Source: a virus. Taken from it: a stretch of DNA of 40,353 nt. The stretch lies in IMG/VR virus record IMGVR_UViG_3300045185_000022. One strand, given 5' to 3'. Below the pieces are notes generated by a model. It made no database searches. It had not been told where the DNA came from and saw only the letters and a list, made by a program, of their open reading frames with translations. Each line of letters begins with the position of its first letter. Within the stretch, counting starts at the first letter, position 1. Shown here piece by piece: positions 4,167 through 38,793 of the stretch. Position numbers and translations under genes: made by a program.

Positions 4167-7100
4167 GTGGCGGATTCGATGGTCGGACATGGCTACGTGC
4201 AGATCACGCCGTCGATGCGGGGATTCCGTAAGACGGTGAATCGTGAGGTGGAGGGGACTGCCGGCGAGGCCCGGCGGTCATTCTCCGCCCGCATGAAGTC
4301 GGCTGGCCGCGAGTCCGGGCAGTCGCTCGGTACGTCTCTGAAGCAGACGCTGACGGCGTCGGCTGGGGATCTTGGCGCGGGTGCGCTGAAGGGTCTCGAG
4401 TCGAACGTCGCGAAGGCTGCCGGAGCGCTCTCTACTGCCCGCCTGAAGCAGCAGGACGAGGCCGGCAAGGTTCGTGTCGCGGAGGCGAAACTCGCGGAAG
4501 CGATGAAGAAGTACCCGGAGGGTGCCTCACAGATCGTCGCCGCTGAGGAGCGTGTTGAGACGGCACGGCGGCGGCACAAGGACGCGACCGACAAGGTCAC
4601 TGACGCCTCCGACAGACTACGCACAGCGCAGGACCGGCTCAAGACCGCGACCGACCGCGTCGCGGATTCCGTCGACAAGGTGAAGCTCGGGTCGTTCGCG
4701 CAGCAGCTGCGCGACGGATGGAAGGACGCGCGCGTCGCGAACTCCCAGTTCTCGGGCGTCGCATCCTCGATCGGTGGCATCGCTCGCGCGGTGTCGAACG
4801 CGTCTGGGCTGTCGAAGCTGGGTGGCATCGCCCGAGCTGCAGCGCAGCGTACGTCGACGGCGTTCGGTTCGCTCGCGACGATGATCGGCGGCAAGCTCTC
4901 CGCAGGATGGACGGCCGCGTCGTCGTGGCTGTCGGGCGTAGCGGGTCGTGTCGGCGGATTCCTTGCCCCGGTGGGGCAGCTGTTCTCCAACCTCGGGACG
5001 AAGCTCGCGACGCCGTTCGTGAACCTCGGCACGAAGATCGCTGGACATCTGAAGCCGGTCACGGACTCGGTGAAGGCGTTCGCGTCGAAGCTGCCTGGCC
5101 CGATGGGCAGCGCAGCTTCCGGTATCGGGTCGACCCTCGCATCTGGCCTGTCCGGCCTCGTCGGCAAGATTGGCACAGTCGGGCGGGACCTCGGCGCGCG
5201 GTTCGCTTCCTCCGTGCAGTCGGCGGCGACCGCTGGCGTCGCTGGTGTCGCTGCTGCTGTAGGCGCGGCTCTCGCGGGCGGTATGGGGCGACTCACGTCG
5301 CTCGACGAGTCGATCGCGAAGATGAAGGGCCTCGGATTCGCGTCCGAGGACATCGAGAAGGCGATGCAGATCGCCAACGATGCCGCGGTCGGCACGTCAT
5401 TCGCGATGAACGATCTCGCGTCGGCTGCGGCAATGGCGATGACGGCCGGGATTAAGCCGGGCGAGCAGCTTGTCGGCTACCTCGATTCGATCAAGGGCGC
5501 GGCGACGGCGTCGGGTGCGCCGGTGCAGGAGATCGCGTCGATCTTCGGCAAGGTTGCGACCGCTGGCACCGCGTACACGACGGAGATTCAGCAGCTCGCG
5601 GACCGTCAGATCCCGATTTGGGGCGAACTCGCCGAGGTCATGGGGGTGCCTGCGGCCGAGGTGAAGAAGCTCGCGTCGGAAGGCAAGATCGACCTCGTCA
5701 CGTTCCAGACCGCGGTCACGAACGCGACCGGCGGCATGGCCGAAGAGATGGGCAAGACTCTGCCAGCGAAGATCGCGAACACGCGGTCGGCGTTCTCCCG
5801 GCTCGGCATGGCGCTGCTCGGCACGAAGATGGAGGGCGACGAGCTCGTCGGCGGCTTGTTCCCGGCGTTCAAGTCGTTCTTCGACATGGTGCGCACGGGC
5901 GTCGACGCGGTGACCGCGCTCATTGGCCCGTTCTTTGAGAAGTGGACGACGTCGGGTGGCGGGAAGCTCGTAGAGCTGTTCGATTCGCTGACCGAGAAGT
6001 TCACGAGCTTCAAGGAAACCGTGTCGGACGGTGGCGGGCTGGATGCCCTCGGCGGGCAGGCGACGAACCTTGCTGCGGTGCTTGCGCCGGTCGGTGCGGC
6101 GCTTGCTGCAATCGGTATCGGTGGTCTAGCTCCGCTGCTGGCGCGCATCCCGGTGCTGGGTGGGATGCTCGGTGGCCTCGGCGGCGCGTTCGCGTTCCTC
6201 GGCGGCCCGATCGGGATCGCGGCGGCGGCGATCGCCGCGTTCATGGCCACGGGCGCCGACTCCAGCGCTCTCGTGTCCGGGTTGACGGGAATCATCGATT
6301 CGGTGCTCGCCATGCTCCCGGGCTTGATCGACACGGTCGTGAAGGTCATCCCCGGCATCGTCGACGGCATCCTGAAGGCTGTGCCGGAGCTGCTGACGGC
6401 GGCGACCGGCATCGTGCAGGGGCTGATCGGCGGCATCGTGAAGGCGACGCCGCTGCTCGCCAAGGGCTGGGTGCTGCTGCTGAACGGCCTGATCAACGCG
6501 GTCGTGCAGAACCTGCCAATGATCATCCAGGCCGCGGTGACGCTCGTCACGACCCTGATACAGGGGATCGTGCAGGCGCTGCCACTGTTGATCCAGGGCT
6601 CCATATCGCTCATCACTGGCCTGATTCAGGGCATCGTCACGAACCTGCCCATGATCATCGAGGCCGCGATTCAGCTGGTCATGTCGCTGATCGAGGGCAT
6701 CATCTCGATGCTGCCGACGCTGATCGAGGCGGCGATCTCGCTCGTGACCACGCTGATCACAGCGATCGCAGAGAACCTGCCTCTGATCATCGAGGCCGGT
6801 ATCGGGCTACTCCTCGCCCTCGTGACGGGCCTGCTCGACGCACTGCCTGAGCTGATAACCGCGGTGCTCGAGCTGATTCCCGCGATCGTGACGACCCTGC
6901 TGGAGAACCTGCCACAACTGGTGTCGGCGGCGTTAGAGATGATCCTGGCGATTGCTGGCGGGCTGATTCAGGCGATCCCGGAGCTGGTCGCGGCGATCCC
7001 GGAGATCATCGCGGCCGTGTTCACCGCATTCACTGAGGTCGATTGGCTGTCGCTTGGTGGCGACATCATCGCGGGCATCGTCGAAGGCATTGTGAATGCC

Positions 7101-7493
7101 GGCGGGCAAATCTGGGATGCGCTGCTCGAGATCGTCGGTGACGCCTGGCAGGGAGTCAAGGACTTCTTCGGAATCGCTTCACCGTCACGGCTCATGCGCG
7201 ACACGATCGGTAAGCAGATCCCGGCGGGTCTCGCGGTCGGTATCAAGCAGGGCGCGAGCGAGTCGACGAATGCCGCTTTGGCGATGTCGAAGCAGGTCGC
7301 GTCGGCTGCGCAGACCGCAGCCACGTATTCCTCGAGCGTGGACGTGCAACGCACCGACACGGGCCTCGCGGTCACGGATGCAGCGGGCCTCACGGTCAAC
7401 TTCACCGTGAATGGCGAGAAGGGTCAGGATGTTGACGAGCTCGTCGACATCATCATGCAACGTCTGGGTGGCGTAAGCCGGAGGTTCCGATGA
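4167..7493 (+). CDS. Tape measure protein (1108 aa)
   Basis: GTG after TAGGAGG; the largest gene; coiled-coil N-terminus, Gly/Ala-rich TM-like centre and a repeat array. Confidence 0.9.
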   Translation: MADSMVGHGYVQITPSMRGFRKTVNREVEGTAGEARRSFSARMKSAGRESGQSLGTSLKQTLTASAGDLGAGALKGLESNVAKAAGALSTARLKQQDEAGKVRVAEAKLAEAMKKYPEGASQIVAAEERVETARRRHKDATDKVTDASDRLRTAQDRLKTATDRVADSVDKVKLGSFAQQLRDGWKDARVANSQFSGVASSIGGIARAVSNASGLSKLGGIARAAAQRTSTAFGSLATMIGGKLSAGWTAASSWLSGVAGRVGGFLAPVGQLFSNLGTKLATPFVNLGTKIAGHLKPVTDSVKAFASKLPGPMGSAASGIGSTLASGLSGLVGKIGTVGRDLGARFASSVQSAATAGVAGVAAAVGAALAGGMGRLTSLDESIAKMKGLGFASEDIEKAMQIANDAAVGTSFAMNDLASAAAMAMTAGIKPGEQLVGYLDSIKGAATASGAPVQEIASIFGKVATAGTAYTTEIQQLADRQIPIWGELAEVMGVPAAEVKKLASEGKIDLVTFQTAVTNATGGMAEEMGKTLPAKIANTRSAFSRLGMALLGTKMEGDELVGGLFPAFKSFFDMVRTGVDAVTALIGPFFEKWTTSGGGKLVELFDSLTEKFTSFKETVSDGGGLDALGGQATNLAAVLAPVGAALAAIGIGGLAPLLARIPVLGGMLGGLGGAFAFLGGPIGIAAAAIAAFMATGADSSALVSGLTGIIDSVLAMLPGLIDTVVKVIPGIVDGILKAVPELLTAATGIVQGLIGGIVKATPLLAKGWVLLLNGLINAVVQNLPMIIQAAVTLVTTLIQGIVQALPLLIQGSISLITGLIQGIVTNLPMIIEAAIQLVMSLIEGIISMLPTLIEAAISLVTTLITAIAENLPLIIEAGIGLLLALVTGLLDALPELITAVLELIPAIVTTLLENLPQLVSAALEMILAIAGGLIQAIPELVAAIPEIIAAVFTAFTEVDWLSLGGDIIAGIVEGIVNAGGQIWDALLEIVGDAWQGVKDFFGIASPSRLMRDTIGKQIPAGLAVGIKQGASESTNAALAMSKQVASAAQTAATYSSSVDVQRTDTGLAVTDAAGLTVNFTVNGEKGQDVDELVDIIMQRLGGVSRRFR
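6312..7037 (+). repeat. About 11 tandem 66-bp (22-aa) repeats inside the tape measure
   Basis: Units such as NLPMIIQAAVTLVTTLIQGIVQ / ALPLLIQGSISLITGLIQGIVT / NLPMIIEAAIQLVMSLIEGIIS follow one another without gaps. Confidence 0.8.
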
Positions 7494-32196: not shown

Positions 32197-32348
32197 GGCT
32201 GCGCATCGAACTGGTTATCGAGACCGGCGACCCCGAGGTCGTGGAGTCCCGAGAGACCGACGTGTACACCGCGGCAGAACTCGCTGGTGATGCCCGTGAC
32301 GAGACCGGAGCCGTACCGCTCGGCTTCCAGGCAGGAGGGGCAGCATGA
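32193..32348 (+). CDS. Hypothetical small acidic protein (51 aa)
   Basis: ATGA overlaps at both ends. Confidence 0.4.
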   Translation: MRLRIELVIETGDPEVVESRETDVYTAAELAGDARDETGAVPLGFQAGGAA

Positions 32349-32971
32349 CCCTCGCTAGCTTCGTGCATGTCCTCGCGTTCCCTCACCAGGAGGAGGTGAA
32401 GGTCATTGACCGGGAGACGAACCGGCCAGAGACCCGCACCATCACCCGCAGGGCACTGCTGGACGACCTCGAAGACACCACGGGAGTCTCGACCGGCGGC
32501 GGGGGAAGTTCGGGCGGGAGTCGCGTCCTCGTCGACTCCGACGTCGTGAAGCTGAAAGCCGCGATCGCCGGCGACTTGCAACGCGACCTGCTGCGCCTCG
32601 GCGTCACGGCATTCAAGTTCGGGCCGCTCGCGAATCAACTCACCGCCTGGTATGCGAACTTCCAAGCGTCATTCCCGAACGGTGCCGAAGAGTATGCGTG
32701 GGCAGGGCAGCTCGAACGGTGGGAGGCGCAGATCCGGGCAGTGACGGAGCCGGTGAAGAAACGCGAAGTGCTCACCGCCTGCCCGATCTGCGGTGCCGCC
32801 GAAACGTATGTCGAGGATGAGCGTCGATCCATGCTCACGATCACGTACAGCGAGGATTCGCCGGCCGCGTCGACCGAGCTCGAATGCCAACGTTGCGGGG
32901 TGCTCGCGCAGGGTGTTGCGGCGGTCGCGGCGACACTCAAAATTGAGAAGGTTCGCAACACCCTCACGTGA
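32345..32971 (+). CDS. Zn-ribbon protein, last gene of the early operon (candidate late-gene regulator)
   Basis: 208 aa; CPICG ... 32 aa ... CQRCG near the C-terminus; followed by a strong terminator and a long non-coding region. Confidence 0.55.
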   Translation: MTLASFVHVLAFPHQEEVKVIDRETNRPETRTITRRALLDDLEDTTGVSTGGGGSSGGSRVLVDSDVVKLKAAIAGDLQRDLLRLGVTAFKFGPLANQLTAWYANFQASFPNGAEEYAWAGQLERWEAQIRAVTEPVKKREVLTACPICGAAETYVEDERRSMLTITYSEDSPAASTELECQRCGVLAQGVAAVAATLKIEKVRNTLT

Positions 32972-33017
32972 TCGTTTTCTGCTATCCTGTTCTCGACGGG
33001 CATTATTGTGTCCAGAT

Positions 33018-33060
33018 CCAGAAGCCCCAGCCATTGCGGTTGGGGCTTCTGGCATTTTCC
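33018..33060 (+). terminator. Strong intrinsic terminator ending the early operon
   Basis: CCAGAAGCCCCA (33018-33029) pairs perfectly with TGGGGCTTCTGG (33041-33052), then CATTTTCC. Confidence 0.8.
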
Positions 33061-33241
33061 AGGCTTGGCGGCATCGGGTGGAACCGGTGGTCGAAGCACA
33101 CGCGAGCGCAGCGTGGCCAAGGAAGCGCGCAACAACCGAACATGTGCACGTGGCCCCGGTGACGCATACGGGGCAAACACCGCTTCACTACCCTTCTCGA
33201 AGCACCTACCCCTCGAGGGGCGCGACTCGACAACGCGCACT

Positions 33242-33309
33242 GTCTCTCAGCACAGGGTGCATGCCGGTCTCCAAAACCGGCCGGCCGGGCTCGATACCTG
33301 GGAGAGGCG
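33242..33309 (+). tRNA. tRNA-like element, possible tRNA-Trp (anticodon CCA) with an abnormally short D-arm
   Basis: Acceptor GTCTCTC/GAGAGGC; anticodon arm CCGGT-CTCCAAA-ACCGG; T-arm CCGGG-CTCGATA-CCTGG. Only 15 nt are available for the D-arm region, no CCA is encoded, and the total is 68 nt. Confidence 0.3.
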
Positions 33310-33514
33310 CAATGATCTGCGATGGGGCTGGAACTCCGGCCCTAGTCTCGGCCGAGCGCGCAGATCAGAAGACCAGGCGATAGCAGACATCCGCGACATC
33401 CTGACGACCTCCCCACTAGGCATAGGGTGCCAAGTGTGGGGTGAGGGTAGCGGCGCACGTAACAGCCCGAGTGGGGCGGCCTGGCACATCTTCCAAGACC
33501 GCAGGGAGCTCAGA

Positions 33515-33745
33515 ATGCAGCGCAAAGAACTACCCGAGCCCGACGAGCACTGGGTGCGGGTCGGCCGTCGAATGTCGCGCTTCCTCTACGCGCTCGGCTA
33601 CGAGACCATGTCGATTTCACCGGCCCGCGAACCGACCACCCCAGACATCACGGTGAACGTGCCAACCAAAGCAGTGTCGGACGAGACTGTCGCCAAGGCA
33701 CTGACCCGCCTCGCCACCGTGCCCGATGGGGCATCAGGCCATTAG
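33515..33745 (+). CDS. Hypothetical protein (76 aa)
   Basis: ATG 6 nt after AGGGAG; MQRKELPEPDEHWVRVGRRMSRFLYALGYE... Confidence 0.55.
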   Translation: MQRKELPEPDEHWVRVGRRMSRFLYALGYETMSISPAREPTTPDITVNVPTKAVSDETVAKALTRLATVPDGASGH

Positions 33746-33821
33746 ACCGCCCCGGCGTCAGGCCGTTGACAGCGCAACCGCCAGTACAGAGCGAGCCGAC
33801 CGGGGCGCCTACACGCACTAC

Positions 33822-34082
33822 ATGTCGCAAGCCTCGGCTATATTCCGAAGCATGAGCCAGCACCTGAACATGTACAACCAGAAGGTTTGCCACGGATGCA
33901 AACCCTGCCAAGGCGGCGGCGCCAACATCGGCCGCACCTGGACCCTCATCGCCATCGGCCTCTGCACCGCAGGCATCGGCCTACTCTTCCTCCCGTTCTT
34001 CAAGAAATGTGTGTACTGCGGGCACAACAGTTGGTGGAACAAACACGCCGGCCCCGTACCGGCGACCCCTACCGGCAACTAG
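33822..34082 (+). CDS. LITAF-like zinc-ribbon membrane protein (86 aa)
   Basis: CHGCKPC, then the hydrophobic TWTLIAIGLCTAGIGLLFLPFF, then KKCVYCGH. The start is uncertain (33726, 33822 or 33852). Confidence 0.5.
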   Translation: MSQASAIFRSMSQHLNMYNQKVCHGCKPCQGGGANIGRTWTLIAIGLCTAGIGLLFLPFFKKCVYCGHNSWWNKHAGPVPATPTGN

Positions 34083-34095
34083 CCCCACCCTCCAC

Positions 34096-34130
34096 AAACC
34101 CCACCCCTCACCCGAGGGCGTGGGGTTTCT
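34096..34130 (+). terminator. Strong stem-loop / terminator
   Basis: AAACCCCAC-CCCTC-accc-GAGGG-c-GTGGGGTTT, then CT. Confidence 0.65.
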
Positions 34131-34149
34131 CCACCCAGGGAGGCACGCG

Positions 34150-34464
34150 ATGGCACGCGAATCCACACGCGAGTTCAAGCGACTCAGAGCAGCATTCAAA
34201 TACGAATGCGCCCAAGCTGACGCCCCATGCTGGATGTGCGGCCTCCCAATCGACTACACCGCAGCGCACGACGCATACTCCAACGACGACAGGTTCGAGC
34301 TCGACCACTACTACCCGGTATCGGCCAGGCCAGAACTACAAGCCGACCGCGCAAACTTCCGCGCCTCGCACGCAGGATGCAACCGACAACGCGGCGACTC
34401 GACCGTCACCTCAACACTCATCGGCACACTCTCACGCGACTGGACAACACCACCGCGCCGCTGA
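34150..34464 (+). CDS. HNH endonuclease (104 aa)
   Basis: CWMCG ... FELDHYYPVS ... NFRASHAGCNRQRG; RBS GGGAGG. Confidence 0.7.
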   Translation: MARESTREFKRLRAAFKYECAQADAPCWMCGLPIDYTAAHDAYSNDDRFELDHYYPVSARPELQADRANFRASHAGCNRQRGDSTVTSTLIGTLSRDWTTPPRR

Positions 34465-34704
34465 CACAGCGACGGTCAGAGCAGTCAACGCGAGCAGCGC
34501 GAACAATCACACAAGCGAGACGCGCAAACGTCACAGCAACGCGCACAACACCCAACAGCATCAAGCCAGCGCGATCACCGACGGCCGCCGGGGGTAGGGG
34601 AGTCTCGCGAATCGAACGAGATCGCCCGGCCCTCACCCCGCCGCCCTTCGGCCGCCGCGCGCTGATGTTTAAGGGGGGGGTCGCGCGCGGATAAGGAGTA
34701 TGCC
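34465..34704 (+). other. Candidate cos / terminase-recognition region
   Basis: ORF-free 240 nt upstream of TerS. Contains a T-depleted tract (about 6 T in 116 nt, 34465-34580) with CGCG(C)A-type repeats, a G8 run at 34673-34680, then TCGCGCGCGG. Confidence 0.4.
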
Positions 34705-35022
34705 ATGTCGCAGTTTCAAAAGTTGTCGGTCGTGGATGCGCTTGAGCGGTCGATCGCGAACGCGACGCATCTCCGCGCCGTGCATTCCGCGCATGTGGCT
34801 GCTGCTCGGGTGCTCGCGAAGCGCATTGACGACCTGAGCGATAACGGTTTCGTTGATGAGAACGGGAAGCTTGACAATGTGTCATTGCCTTCGTTCCTGA
34901 AGTACTTGGATGCGATGGGGATTAGTGCTGATCCTCCGGTGGCAATGAAGGCGGAGAAGACGCCGGCGACGCCGAAGGATCAGATCGCCGCAATGCGCAA
35001 GAAGTTGCAGGGCGCCGGATAG
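34705..35022 (+). CDS. Terminase small subunit (likely)
   Basis: RBS AAGGAG; 105 aa; helical; LPSFLKYLDAMGISADPP resembles P27-type TerS; called also by position. Confidence 0.5.
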   Translation: MSQFQKLSVVDALERSIANATHLRAVHSAHVAAARVLAKRIDDLSDNGFVDENGKLDNVSLPSFLKYLDAMGISADPPVAMKAEKTPATPKDQIAAMRKKLQGAG

Positions 35023-35032
35023 AATTAGAAGC

Positions 35033-35065
35033 GGCCCGAATAAGTGCGCCAACACTTACCGGGCC
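35033..35065 (+). promoter_or_regulatory. GC-clamped stem-loop 33 nt upstream of the HNH/TerL genes
   Basis: GGCCCG pairs with CGGGCC, with an inner AAGTG/CACTT stem. Flanks CGGCCCG and TACCGGGCCTAACC are shared with the 25981 hairpin. Confidence 0.55.
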
Positions 35066-35097
35066 TAACCCAAACCTAAGTGAGTAGGAGGGCTGCG

Positions 35098-35853
35098 ATG
35101 CAGTCTACGCGAACCTGTTCAGTCGATGGATGTGCCGGTGACGTTATCGCGCGCGGGTGGTGCAGCAAGCACTATCAGAAGTGGCGAAAGTACGGCGATC
35201 CGATGGAAGGCCGCGGTCAAGATTTTCGTAAGGCGGTTGATTTCGAGGACGGCACACGTCTTTGCAGTGGGTGCTACGAAAGACAGCCGCTCGAGGTATT
35301 CGACAAGGACCCAGGTGGCACACTTGGCAGAAAGTCTCGGTGCAAGGCTTGTAGGTCGGCTCAGATGAGAGCTTTGTACGCATCGAACCGCGAGGAGAAG
35401 CTTGCATCGGTTCGAGAGTATCGCAATGCGAATCGCGATGTTGTCCGCGAGTCTGACAGTCGTCGTTATGCCAGGCATCGCGAGAAACGAATTGCGCTTG
35501 CCACCGAGAGCGCGCATCTGCGCCGCTCTCGAATCTTGCAGAAAAGTAATGACCGGGGAATATCACGGCATTCACTGCGTAAGAGGCATGGCGATAATTG
35601 TTGCTATTGCGGCAGATCGATGTCTTTTAGGGCTGGCACGCGTGGCGTTTATAACCCTGGGCTGGCGACTATTGAACACATCGTTCCAATCAGCAAGGGC
35701 GGCTCTCACACATGGGGCAACGTGACACTGGCGTGCTGGGAATGCAATATTCGGCGCGGGAACAGGGATGCCCCTGCAACTTCAGGGGGTGCGCATGGCG
35801 GAGCCGACGCATGGCTTCACGGTGCCTCGGATTTGGACGAAGCCGCTTCGTGA
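35098..35853 (+). CDS. HNH endonuclease (terminase-associated)
   Basis: CSVDGC ... ARGWCSKHYQKWRKYGDP in the N-terminus; CCYCG ... ATIEHIVPISKGGSHTWGNVTLACWECNIRRGN in the C-terminus; RBS TAGGAGGG. Confidence 0.8.
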   Translation: MQSTRTCSVDGCAGDVIARGWCSKHYQKWRKYGDPMEGRGQDFRKAVDFEDGTRLCSGCYERQPLEVFDKDPGGTLGRKSRCKACRSAQMRALYASNREEKLASVREYRNANRDVVRESDSRRYARHREKRIALATESAHLRRSRILQKSNDRGISRHSLRKRHGDNCCYCGRSMSFRAGTRGVYNPGLATIEHIVPISKGGSHTWGNVTLACWECNIRRGNRDAPATSGGAHGGADAWLHGASDLDEAAS

Positions 35854-37342
35854 TCTGAACCGTTCGACCTCGCGTGGTTTCGAGGTGATCACGTTCGCCA
35901 AGGATGTTCTCGGCGTGACGTTGTTCCCGTGGCAAGAGTGGCTGCTCATCCACATGCTTGAGCTGAACGAGGACGGCACGCTGCGGTTTCCTCGCGTGCT
36001 GGTCATCGTTGGCCGACAGGCGGGCAAGACGTTGATGGCGGCGGTGCTCGCCGCGTTTTGGCTGTATGTCGATTCCGCGCGGTGGCCTGGGCAGCTTCGC
36101 GAAATGGACTTCACGATTGTTGGGTCTGCGCAGAAGCTCGACATTGCGATGAAGCCTTGGGAGAAGGTGCGCGCTTGGGCGTGCCCTGACGATCCGAAGG
36201 TGGGTGTGTTCCCTGAGCGGGTGCCGCTATTGCAGTCGGTGACGTATCCGCCGCGGATGATGTCGAGCGAGGTGTACATCCGCACGCATGGTGGTGCACG
36301 CTATCTGCCGCGCACGTTCAGCGCTGCTCGTGGCCAGTCTGCGGCTCGGTTGATTCTCGATGAGTTGCGGGAGCAGTACGACTTCACCGGATGGTCAGCG
36401 ATTGAGAAGTCAGCGAATGCGATGTTTGATTCGCAGCTGGTGGCGTTCTCGAATGCTGGGACGGCGAAGTCGAAGGTGCTCGAGTCAGTGCGTTCGATCG
36501 CGCATCAAGGTGTGGATGACCCTGACACGGTGTGGTTTGTGGCGGAGTGGTCGGCGGAGCCGGATGCCGCGCTCGACGATCCGATTGCGTTTGCGCAGGC
36601 GAACCCGTCCGCCGGCTATTTGCCTGGGCAGACGATCCAGGGATTGATTTCGGCTGCTGCTGAGGCACCGGATGAGTCGGTTGAGCGCATCGAGGTACTC
36701 GGTCAGTGGATTACTGCTCAGACGCACCCGCTCATTCCTACTGGCGCGTGGCTCGATTGCACCGATGAGGGGTCGCAGATCATGCCAGGTAGTGAGATGG
36801 CGCTCGCGGTCGATGTCGACTGGGATCGTAAGTATGCGGCCGTAGCGGTTGCAGGCTGGCGGGCTGATGGTCTCCCTCACGTGGAGGCGATCGCGCATCG
36901 GGCCGGGATCATGTGGACGGTGCCGTTTATTCGTGAGGTCGCTGAAGCGCAGGGTATTCGCCGGGTTGCGGTGAGGTCTCGGGGTGCGGCGGCGTCCGAG
37001 CTCGTCGGGCCGCTCCGGGATGCTGGCCTCGAGGTTGTGGAGGTTGCGGGGCCGGCTGATGGTCAAGCGGCTGGGCAGCTTCGTGACGATGTTCTAGCGG
37101 GCAAGGTAAGGCATCGCGGGCAGCAGCCGGTGAATGATGCGTTTGCGGCGTGTGAGCCGTCGACCGTGGGCGGTGTTGAGGTGTTTGAGCGGCGTGGTGC
37201 CGCGCTCTCGACGTCGCCGGGTATCGCCTGCGCGTACGCGCTGTGGGCGTTACGGAATCAGAGCGGCGCTCCGCCGCTATCGGCGTACGAACCGGACGAG
37301 CCGGACGGTGAACCTGGCGTGCCGTGGTGGCGGAAGGGGTGA
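35795..37342 (+). CDS. Terminase large subunit
   Basis: LFPWQEWLLIHM, Walker A VGRQAGKT, LILDELRE. The ATG follows AGGGGG. The start is uncertain (35768, 35795 or 35822). Confidence 0.85.
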   Translation: MAEPTHGFTVPRIWTKPLRDLNRSTSRGFEVITFAKDVLGVTLFPWQEWLLIHMLELNEDGTLRFPRVLVIVGRQAGKTLMAAVLAAFWLYVDSARWPGQLREMDFTIVGSAQKLDIAMKPWEKVRAWACPDDPKVGVFPERVPLLQSVTYPPRMMSSEVYIRTHGGARYLPRTFSAARGQSAARLILDELREQYDFTGWSAIEKSANAMFDSQLVAFSNAGTAKSKVLESVRSIAHQGVDDPDTVWFVAEWSAEPDAALDDPIAFAQANPSAGYLPGQTIQGLISAAAEAPDESVERIEVLGQWITAQTHPLIPTGAWLDCTDEGSQIMPGSEMALAVDVDWDRKYAAVAVAGWRADGLPHVEAIAHRAGIMWTVPFIREVAEAQGIRRVAVRSRGAAASELVGPLRDAGLEVVEVAGPADGQAAGQLRDDVLAGKVRHRGQQPVNDAFAACEPSTVGGVEVFERRGAALSTSPGIACAYALWALRNQSGAPPLSAYEPDEPDGEPGVPWWRKG

Positions 37343-37344
37343 GC

Positions 37345-38793
37345 GTGAACATCATCGAACGATTCGGGCGTATGCTCTCGACTCGCACAGCAGGCAAGAT
37401 TGAGGGAGTCTCGCCGTATGGGCAGCAGCTGCAGCTGGTGTCGTATATGCGCGGTGAGGGCGAAGTTGAGTCGGTCGGCTCATGGCCGGTGGCGCGCCTG
37501 TGGCGTACGCAACCGCATCTGCGCACGGTCGTGGATCTGATCTCGCAGCAGGTCGCTGCGCTCGGCCTTCACGTGTACCGATTCGATGGTGACGGTGGCC
37601 GTGAGCGGGTCCGCGACTCGGCGCTGCAGTCGCTGCTGGAGATGCCGAACCGGGAACAGACCGGCGTCGAGTTCATTTACTCGCTCGTGACGCAGCTGTC
37701 GCTTTATGACGATGCGTTCGTGTACGTCGCATTCAACGGTGACGGAAAGCTGCAGGCTCGGGTTGTGCCCGCGACGTGGGTGACGCTCGAGGTCAACGAG
37801 TCCAAGACCGAGGTGCTCGGCTACATCGTGAACGGTGTCCGGTTGAACCGGAACGACATCGTCCGATTCCCTGGCGGCACGCCGGATGAGCCGACGCAGT
37901 CGGCGTCGCCTGTGGAGACGCTGCGCACGATCCTCGACTCGGAGAACGCGACGCATGCGCGCCGCCGCAACATCCTCACTCGCGGGCCTCGCGTCGGTGG
38001 CGTGATCCAACGCCCGAAGGACGCGCCCCGCTGGACGGATGCGGCCCGTCGCACGTTCGACGAGACGTGGGAAGCGTTCCAGCCGGGCGGGGAACGCGCC
38101 GGTGACGCGGTGCTGCTCGAGGACGGCATGTCGTACACGGCTCCCGAGTTCGATGCGTCCGCGACTGGCTATAAGGACGGTTCCGTGCTGTCGCTGTCGA
38201 CTGTCGCGCAGGTGTTCCATATCCATCCGGCGATCCTCGGCATCTCTGGTGCGGTCGGTTATCAGGGTGTGAAGGAGATCCGGCAGGCGCTCATCGGCGA
38301 CTCGCTCGCGTGGACGTTGAAGCGTATCGAGGCACGGTTCACGCAGGTGTTCCTGCAGCTCGTTGGAGAGACCGGCATGTACGTCGAGTTCAATCGTGAG
38401 GCGCGCCTGCAGGGGTCGTTCGAGGAGCAGGCTGTGATCATCCGCCAGTCGGTCGGCGCTCCGTTCATGACCGTGAATGAGGCGCGGGCGATGCGGAACA
38501 TGCCCGCGGTCGACGGCGGTGACGAACTCATCGTGCCGCTGAATGTCACGACCGAGGGTGGTTCGAACCGCTCCCCGGAGGATGACACCGCGCAGCAGGA
38601 CGGCATGAAGCACCTCATTGACGGCGTCGTCTCACGGGCACGGAATGCGATCACCGCGAAGCGGGGTGCTGGCGACACCAGCATCGATTGGGCGCGCTGG
38701 ACTCGCGAGCTTCTCGAGGATGCCGCCAAGTCGGGGGTCGAACTCGACGATGCCGCGATCGGTCGCGCGCTCGCGGAGATCGGGAGGCTGTGA
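37345..38793 (+). CDS. Portal protein (HK97 family)
   Basis: GTG after GGAAGGGG; 482 aa between TerL and the protease; RTVVDLISQQVAALGLHVY ... NGVRLNRNDIVRF. Confidence 0.85.
   Translation: MNIIERFGRMLSTRTAGKIEGVSPYGQQLQLVSYMRGEGEVESVGSWPVARLWRTQPHLRTVVDLISQQVAALGLHVYRFDGDGGRERVRDSALQSLLEMPNREQTGVEFIYSLVTQLSLYDDAFVYVAFNGDGKLQARVVPATWVTLEVNESKTEVLGYIVNGVRLNRNDIVRFPGGTPDEPTQSASPVETLRTILDSENATHARRRNILTRGPRVGGVIQRPKDAPRWTDAARRTFDETWEAFQPGGERAGDAVLLEDGMSYTAPEFDASATGYKDGSVLSLSTVAQVFHIHPAILGISGAVGYQGVKEIRQALIGDSLAWTLKRIEARFTQVFLQLVGETGMYVEFNREARLQGSFEEQAVIIRQSVGAPFMTVNEARAMRNMPAVDGGDELIVPLNVTTEGGSNRSPEDDTAQQDGMKHLIDGVVSRARNAITAKRGAGDTSIDWARWTRELLEDAAKSGVELDDAAIGRALAEIGRL

Follow-up and report, generated by a model that had tools for sequence, protein, structure and literature searches.

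The 543-nt gap between the early and late gene blocks of IMG/VR virus record IMGVR_UViG_3300045185_000022 (40,353 nt, analysed whole and called the window below) extends from the stop codon at 32971 to the ATG at 33515 (positions 32972-33514), and probably contains a cassette of + strand non-coding RNA modules located after the early-operon terminator. Judged from alignments with relatives, the modules are conserved as units and their predicted helices are maintained by compensatory substitutions, and the G-U pairs and a tRNA both place them on the + strand. An initial annotation, made from the letters of the window, had described 33053-33514 as a hairpin-dense region free of open reading frames (ORFs), representing either one or more structured non-coding RNAs or a long regulatory leader controlling entry into the late operon. 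All of the stems it listed were present where it had placed them, and its proposal of structured non-coding RNA was borne out by compensatory + strand changes in at least four modules and by the presence of a tRNA-Trp homologue.

Conserved RNA modules in the gap

Relatives were gathered from contigs carrying homologues of the flanking proteins and by conserved-word scans of sequence collections. The resulting set (L008, L004, L005/6/7, L226, L227, L239, L010 and L237) came from Microbacteriaceae prophages, L010 being identical to a Microbacterium sp. metagenome-assembled genome (MAG) and L237 being a prophage of Gulosibacter massiliensis. The homologous stretch was devoid of called genes in all relatives (including the corresponding gaps of L008, L226, L010 and L239), so that coding in relatives, an outcome that the initial annotation had named as one that would count against it, was not observed. 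DNA similarity to the window came in blocks, and the relatives carried differing subsets of the modules, with short conserved sequences, TTTCCAGG and AGACCGC among them, at the joints.

Module A begins with a three-way junction (33064-33121, + strand), resolved by pair counts in a hand-curated alignment (A6) of eight copies from six phage contexts, with N padding used to hold the columns in the aligner. Helix P1 pairs 33064-33069 with 33116-33121 (double changes in 4 of 6 pairs), H1 pairs 33072-33077 with 33084-33089 around the loop GUGGAA (3 of 7) and, following the joining strand GUCGAAGCA (33090-33098), H2 pairs 33099-33103 with 33111-33115 around the loop GAGCGCA (6 of 7), which ends in AGCGCA in the alignment. 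A linker with conserved CGCGCAACAACC (33122-33152, +, from alignments) leads to hairpin H3 (33153-33174, +), in which GCCCCG and CGGGGC enclose the loop GUGACGCAUA. This stem, already noticed in the initial annotation, showed double changes in 6 of 7 pairs with 100% of cells paired, the ACGCAUA-type loop being kept and the stem variable. For the module as a whole, 96.9% of 191 cells were standard pairs and 19 of 27 pairs had changed on both sides; at most 6 such pairs were obtained when the 3' partners were slid by 1-3 columns, and none of 500 shuffles scored as high on any measure. Loops and joining strands were conserved and stems variable, with G-U pairs on the + strand. Training a covariance model (R1) on six of the copies was enough to retrieve two copies outside its training set, in L226 (56 bits) and L239 (41.8 bits, E = 1.5e-8), and gave no match in Microbacterium phage Min1 or the other terminase relatives. 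No Rfam match was obtained for module A.

Module A was always found after a terminator-like hairpin, and was sometimes the last element of its transcription unit; it is therefore probably tied to the hairpin and not to the late genes. In the window, this is a GC-rich hairpin followed by a T-run (CATTTTCC, 33018-33052, +), read from the sequence as the end of the early operon and weakly matching the sar and RybB terminator hairpins of Rfam. Upstream of module A there is a similar hairpin, with TTTCC after it, in L004, L005 (first copy), L008, L010, L226 and L239. Between hairpin and junction lies the motif TTTCCAGG (33056-33063, +, from alignments), conserved at this position and also serving as a recombination joint; the terminator and TTTCCAGG are duplicated in L004 and L005, where modules A and B end a rightward unit and convergent genes come next. 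Two tertiary contacts can be drawn within module A: UUCCA of TTTCCAGG may pair with UGGAA of the H1 loop, both of which vary little, and the linker GCGC could pair with the invariant GCGC of the H2 loop, where both sides are invariant.

The stem and loop of H1 also include GGGUGGAACCGG (33076-33087), which resembles the T-box consensus, and its UGGAA is complementary both to the upstream UUCCA (33057-33061) and to UCCA of the tRNA-Trp anticodon loop. T-box leaders combine a Stem I bearing a specifier loop with a GGGUGGNACCGCG-type antiterminator bulge, ahead of an aminoacyl-tRNA-related gene. Such a leader, suggested by GGGUGGAACC and by the Trp codon UGG in the H1 loop, was rejected: no T-box model of Rfam matched at E<=10, no aminoacyl-tRNA-related gene was found nearby, and GGGUGGAACCGG forms the H1 stem and loop instead. 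The loop and junction sequences of module A, together with its lack of Rfam matches, led to the rejection of two further readings, one as a hammerhead-type ribozyme and the other as a tRNA that is degenerate or armless.

Module B is a 26-nt H-type pseudoknot, CGAGGGGCGCGACUCGACAACGCGCA (33214-33239, +), assigned by comparison. Stem S1 pairs 33214-33217 with 33226-33229 (bases 1-4 with 13-16) and S2 pairs 33220-33224 with 33234-33238 (bases 7-11 with 21-25), while loops L1, L2 and L3 read GG, A and ACAA in the window and GG, a single purine and NCAA across the set. The GCGCG/CGCGC stem of the initial annotation (33220-33238) corresponds to S2 of this widespread element; the 12-bp palindrome CCCCTCGAGGGG (33209-33220), which it had listed as a further stem, was not conserved as a hairpin, and its CGAG is the 5' strand of S1. 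The 26-nt block was identical in the window, L226 and L227 and differed by one base in L005. Scanning IMG/VR with the exact 23-nt core GGGGCGCGRCTCGACAACGCGCA returned 45 contigs with unrelated flanks and a GC content of 43-70%; every copy was intergenic, and all contigs but one had a single copy. In contig L253 (IMG/VR) two pseudoknots were observed, at 4168 and 4546 (378 nt apart), with S1 as CGAG/CUCG and CAAG/CUUG, respectively.

Short BLAST searches against cultured phages gave matches almost wholly from phages of Actinobacteria, some in annotated intergenic gaps and others inside capsid-protease or portal genes, the latter probably being due to chance. The full pseudoknot pattern was read on the sense strand of intergenic gaps in Mycobacterium phages EastView9101, LilMcDreamy, Rosebush and Fishburne and in Corynebacterium phages BFK20 and PSonyx, and homologous intergenic matches were listed, in BLAST output only, for Donovan and other Rosebush-like phages. 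Five variants of S1 were seen (CGAG/CUCG, CCAG/CUGG, CCGG/CCGG, GCAG/CUGC and CAAG/CUUG), giving double changes in 3 of 4 pairs (alignment A8) compared to at most one in slid controls. The pseudoknot was in sense orientation in every case, with a stop codon a few to about 65 nt before it and the next start 7-102 nt (mostly 7-35 nt) after it; the tRNA of the window begins 2 nt after it, and a tRNA-Leu follows after 4 nt in L227. Genes downstream of the pseudoknot include those for a MazG-like pyrophosphatase, RecT/Bet and a helicase, and in many other phages it lies within early replication modules. Among the IMG/VR loci L240-L284, 20 of 43 upstream ORFs were observed to end in an acidic ...D/E-x-IPF/IPW/IPY tip of the kind typical of single-stranded DNA-binding protein (SSB); the attribution to SSB is tentative, one of these ORFs giving a weak PHROG SSB match. 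Module A was absent from the 45 IMG/VR pseudoknot loci, in which ARAGORN likewise reported no tRNA, and from five cultured-phage loci. The pseudoknot is thus a motif in its own right, one that has come to lie before a tRNA in this phage group. No Rfam model matched the pseudoknot in a search with 33200-33245 (46 nt), even at E<=10, and no paper on its sequence was found in the literature searched.

Module C (cloverleaf 33242-33309, feature to 33312, +) is a tRNA-Trp(CCA)-like gene in which the D arm is short. Its minimum free energy (MFE) fold is a cloverleaf with a 7-bp acceptor stem (33242-33248 with 33302-33308), D and anticodon stems and a 5-bp T stem, and the 7-nt anticodon loop CUCCAAA (33269-33275) has U33, anticodon CCA and a purine at position 37. 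The D loop, AGG, is only 3 nt long (5 nt as drawn by ARAGORN) against a canonical length of about 7-11 nt with G18G19, the T loop CUCGAUA has C at position 54 against the canonical U54-U55-C56-R-A58, and the discriminator G33309 is followed by CAA in place of CCA. When compared with L008 and L010, 22 of 22 pairs were kept, with five double changes, and module C is therefore considered to be under structural selection and not decaying. The L008 copy has a canonical T loop (UUCGAUC) with the same short D loop, is called as tRNA-Trp(CCA) by ARAGORN with default settings, and shares 87.5% identity over 40 nt with the tRNA-Trp annotated in Microbacterium phage Hendrix; despite the default call it reached only 24.7 bits in Rfam. 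The L010 copy has an altered anticodon-stem base and is uncalled by ARAGORN. In L227 the slot is occupied by a standard tRNA-Leu(CAA), and the slot therefore carries exchangeable tRNA cargo. On this comparison the cloverleaf, which the initial annotation had termed tRNA-like, is a phage tRNA-Trp homologue, structurally intact but non-canonical. Covariation among relatives, a check proposed in that annotation, was thereby found in module A (19/27), in S1 (3/4) and in the tRNA (five double changes).

Module D (33313-33495), for which the comparison rests on one relative, L227, comprises a three-way junction, D1 (33313-33367, +; MFE z = -3.36, the only clearly low value for a sub-element), and a long hairpin, D2 (33368-33495, +; from the L227 alignment and the fold). 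The helices of D1 are the closing stem UGAUCUGCG/CGCAGAUCA, the hairpin GGGCUGG/CCGGCCC and the mini-hairpin CUC-GGCC-GAG. The same architecture is found at 120-176 in L227, with GGUCUGCG/CGCAGACC, GCGCUGG/CCGGCGC and CCA-UGCA-UGG, the differences being compensatory in all three helices; the GATCTGC/GCAGATC junction described initially is thus kept with compensatory changes. D2 is closed by GAAGACCAGGC and GCCUGGCACAUCUUC, a stem common to the window and L227, and its loop has a 71-nt insertion (33379-33449) present in the window only, for which no homologue was found. A direct repeat, GACATCC-GC-GACATCC, was observed within the insertion (33386-33401). The CCCCAC...GTGGGG stem that had also been listed does exist; it lies inside this insertion and so has no comparative support.

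Genomic setting and exchange of modules

The window is a temperate siphovirus-type genome or prophage (63% GC), the host of which is a high-GC actinobacterium, and its large terminase is nearest to that of Microbacterium phage Min1 (59% amino-acid identity). Both genes flanking the gap have identical sequences on a 652-kb metagenomic contig, and these sequences are indexed in 343 blocks of the public collection. On this identical public contig the 543-nt gap is the biggest in its 10-kb stretch, and the gene caller calls no gene inside it. The final early gene (32345-32971) encodes a 208-aa Zn-ribbon protein. Downstream, a 76-aa gene (33515-33745) has a good Shine-Dalgarno sequence (GGGAG and ATG at 33504-33517, +, read from the sequence and from the gene call on the identical contig), and is followed by genes for a small LITAF-like membrane protein (33852-34082), a first HNH endonuclease (about 34150-34464), the small terminase (34705-35022), a second HNH endonuclease (35080-35853), the large terminase (35768-37342) and the portal (37324-38793).

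The second HNH gene sits between the terminase genes, with an 86-nt overlap with the large-terminase ORF, and L008 and L227 have no gene at that place. The 240 nt between the first HNH gene and the small terminase gene (34465-34704) are gene-free, and L008 is A/T-rich at the equivalent place. In HNH-dependent cos phages, cos usually sits between the HNH and small terminase genes, and the cos site of the window is more likely to be found at 34465-34704 than in the 32972-33514 gap. Ahead of the LITAF-like gene (phrog_23410; region 33826-34082), TATATT ends 7 nt before the ATG and there is no Shine-Dalgarno sequence, which suggests a leaderless transcript from a promoter of its own. The same gene was seen within tail modules of Leifsonia prophages, where it behaves as a moron, and because it is a moron, searches through relatives of its product were uninformative, leading only to unrelated tail-module contexts.

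Searches by sequence or pattern returned few further instances of the locus. BLAST of the gap against 50,697 cultured phages, in near and distant modes, gave no match, and queries taken from the relatives gave only tRNA matches in the same phages. Scans of the window, the gap and four relatives with Rfam 15 (4227 models), at gathering and E-value thresholds, gave nothing relevant, with 0 matches at gathering score over the whole window, in line with the failure of the initial annotation to recognise a known RNA family. Pattern scans gave at least 120 matches in metagenomes, all due to chance, and 76 matches in genomes, of which one was real (the Microbacterium sp. MAG identical to L010); two more pattern scans of IMG/VR yielded chance matches only. 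The element was absent from relatives found through the large terminase, including Min1.

The distribution of modules among the relatives indicates, as far as sequence goes, that they recombine and are exchanged as units between otherwise unrelated phages. Modules A and C of L010 are about 91% identical to those of L008, and 0 of 12 window proteins tested were found in L010. In L004 and L005 (5700-6510 in each) a DUF4145 gene has been inserted exactly after the TTTTCCAGG junction, bringing with it a second terminator-like hairpin and TTTCCAGG ahead of module A, which has the appearance of a moron inserted cleanly at a conserved joint. L005 carries two diverged copies of module A (6500-6622 and 7286-7407, about 780 nt apart), the first with a weakened P1 and the second followed by the pseudoknot. 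In L237 (4773-4990) only the linker and hairpin H3 of module A remain, joined directly to the D2 end and to a long hairpin, GCCCTCGACTGGC...GCCAGCGAGGGC, which is also present in L008 and L227.

Weighing of the explanations

If the gap is an RNA cassette, it would be transcribed rightward, either from a promoter that escaped recognition or by polymerase reading through the terminator-like hairpin, which would be leaky. The tRNA would then be cut out by RNase P and 3' processing, with CCA added afterwards, and the pseudoknot would act in cis on the next downstream unit. That unit can be a tRNA or an ORF, and an effect on transcription, processing or stability is therefore more likely than one on translation. 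Module A could be a structural RNA that binds a protein or an RNA and is associated with the 3' end of the early unit. A more specific proposal, possible though hardly to be called likely, is that the pseudoknot belongs to an undescribed actinobacteriophage class of cis-acting RNA that sets downstream expression by binding either a small molecule or a conserved component of the host (RNA polymerase, an RNase or the ribosome), and that module A represents a second new phage RNA class travelling with tRNA cargo.

Several observations weigh against the cassette. It is deduced from sequence comparison; a scan for sigma-70-type promoters over 32500-35200 gave 0 sites, and the hairpin immediately upstream is terminator-like. 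The region was not hairpin-dense beyond chance, contrary to its first description, since the MFE of the whole gap against dinucleotide shuffles gave z = -0.08 on the + strand and +1.17 on the - strand. Because gap-wide folding energy was no better than shuffled, the case for structure rests on the relatives, and single-sequence evidence alone would have led to dismissal of a structured locus. The module A alignment was made by hand with the structure in view and from only eight sequences, and the search pattern itself required the unvarying S2 and loops of the pseudoknot, which makes their invariance partly circular. As for the tRNA, ARAGORN found none in the window with default settings and called it once thresholds were lowered by 5% (-ps), the best Rfam clan match was tRNA-Sec (19.6 bits against a gathering score of 47), and with C54 and a 3-5-nt D loop the molecule may not be chargeable.

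That the gap is instead protein-coding, or a recently inactivated gene, is scarcely credible. The description of the region as ORF-free holds in that no gene is called and the signals are non-coding, but fails in a strict sense, as a frame of 245 codons (33008-33745) is open across the gap and in frame with the 76-aa gene. Chance ORFs of such length are frequent in a window of 63% GC, however, and the codon-position GC (GC3) profile is flat over 33100-33460, unlike that of the flanking genes. The translated frame had no Pfam or PHROG match, relatives differ by indels of 1-2 nt within stems, and the DNA shared with L001, the sole IMG/VR relative of the 76-aa gene, begins only at 33497, 18 nt before the ATG at 33515. 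At the sequence level, composition and indel pattern exclude the coding reading, and the gap is best read as non-coding, being neither a hidden gene nor junk spacer. It appears unlikely that the gap is a regulatory leader for the late operon resembling lambda pR'-tR', in which a promoter immediately ahead of the hairpin would be combined with the terminator, and module A or the pseudoknot would either render RNA polymerase resistant to terminators, as HK022 put does, or serve as the target of a phage antiterminator such as the 208-aa Zn-ribbon protein. Such a leader would explain the position between the last early gene and the HNH/small terminase/large terminase/portal block (window, L008 and L010), the presence of a Zn-ribbon protein as the last early gene in both the window and L010, and the TANNNT-like hexamers before the hairpin in the window, L004 and L008. 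Module A lies downstream, not upstream, of the hairpin; modules A and B are unit-final in L004 and L005, with convergent genes beyond; the pseudoknot occurs elsewhere inside early replication modules; and the promoter scan was empty. The 208-aa protein (AlphaFold2 pLDDT (predicted local distance difference test) 63.6; best Foldseek match to PDB at E = 0.09; nothing relevant in a PDB sequence search) matched neither Q proteins nor any other protein, whether by structure or by sequence, and no support was obtained for it as a Q-like antiterminator.

Decay offers another account, in which the gap contains functionless remnants, left from a phage tRNA array and from moron boundaries, that mosaic recombination has carried along. 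The sub-threshold detector scores of the window tRNA, the changed anticodon-stem base of the uncalled L010 copy, the partial module A of L237, the weakened P1 of the first L005 copy and the coming and going of modules among relatives would all fit, yet we consider it very unlikely, as pair-preserving changes occur in every helix of modules A, C and D1 and in S1 of module B, all 22 pairs of the window tRNA are intact, and neutral decay cannot explain a pseudoknot with at least 23 identical bases across phages of 43-70% GC. Still less probable are inverted repeats acting at the DNA level, as operator palindromes, a cos/pac or replication signal, or single-stranded DNA structures. The gap does include palindromic elements (CCCCTCGAGGGG and CTCGGCCGAG), the pseudoknot often lies after genes with the SSB-like tip and before RecT and helicase genes, and covariation alone cannot separate RNA from single-stranded DNA structures (PMC5737381). 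Conserved loops on variable stems are nevertheless the opposite of what protein-bound palindromes show, and only one of the two strands tolerates G-T pairs. With respect to the neighbouring genes the elements invariably have the sense orientation, and a tRNA is among the modules. In addition, cos would be expected at 34465-34704, and the palindrome CCCCTCGAGGGG is unconserved. A cassette of + strand RNA modules thus remains the preferred explanation.

Significance and relation to known systems

The locus appears to be a phage non-coding RNA/tRNA cassette with two apparently undescribed motifs. Gaps of this kind are left blank by phage annotation pipelines, and this one contains a tRNA missed by standard detectors, together with two or more structured RNA motifs outside any Rfam family. 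The pseudoknot is present in tractable mycobacteriophages (the Rosebush-like cluster and Fishburne/Donovan) and in Corynebacterium phage BFK20, which makes its function directly testable; its near-invariance in phages with a GC content of 43-70% suggests that it has a conserved partner, which could be a host machine or a ligand, and it would, if real, be among the smallest known cis-acting RNAs. Modules and tRNA cargo (Trp or Leu) seem to be swapped among unrelated phages, and RNA morons thus appear to move in the same manner as protein-coding morons.

Module C resembles other phage tRNAs, such as the tRNA-Trp of Hendrix, in its cloverleaf and in the anticodon loop CUCCAAA. In lambdoid Shiga toxin (Stx) phages, tRNA genes lie in the late leader downstream of Q/pR', and module C is likewise located between early and late blocks. 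It differs from phage tRNAs in its 3-5-nt D loop, C54, lack of an encoded CCA and low detector scores, and in being embedded among other conserved structured modules. Short stem-loops at an operon boundary near a terminator, with covarying stems and conserved loops, are shared with HK022 put and with lambda nut/Q; module A, however, comes after the terminator-like hairpin instead of before it, and no Q, N or Nun homologue was identified by PDB sequence search or Foldseek. GOLLD and ROOL are large structured RNAs of unknown function, often prophage-borne and next to tRNA genes (PMC5737381). The prophage context, the tRNA neighbour, the conserved multistem junctions and possible co-transcription with a tRNA are common to these and the cassette, but module A is about 110 nt long compared to roughly 580-800 nt and is narrowly distributed, in Microbacteriaceae prophages. 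The Rfam models of GOLLD and ROOL gave no match in the window or the gap, and module A is not a member of either family.

For module B, the closest resemblance is to the small H-type pseudoknot aptamers of the guanidine-III (ykkC-III) and preQ1-I riboswitches. Module B is likewise a compact H-type pseudoknot, with a covarying 4-bp S1, a GC-rich S2, an ACAA-containing loop 3 and near-invariant loop bases, and its location 7-102 nt ahead of start codons is a further similarity; guanidine-III follows the pattern CCGG..GCGC..CCGG..ACAA..CGC. Module B is set apart by its size of only 26 nt, by the lack of an Rfam match at E<=10 in the 46 nt searched and by its neighbours, which are genes for proteins with the SSB-like tip, RecT/Bet, helicase and MazG-like proteins, or tRNAs, and not guanidine or queuosine genes. 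It also occurs before tRNAs, a placement that a translational switch does not explain.

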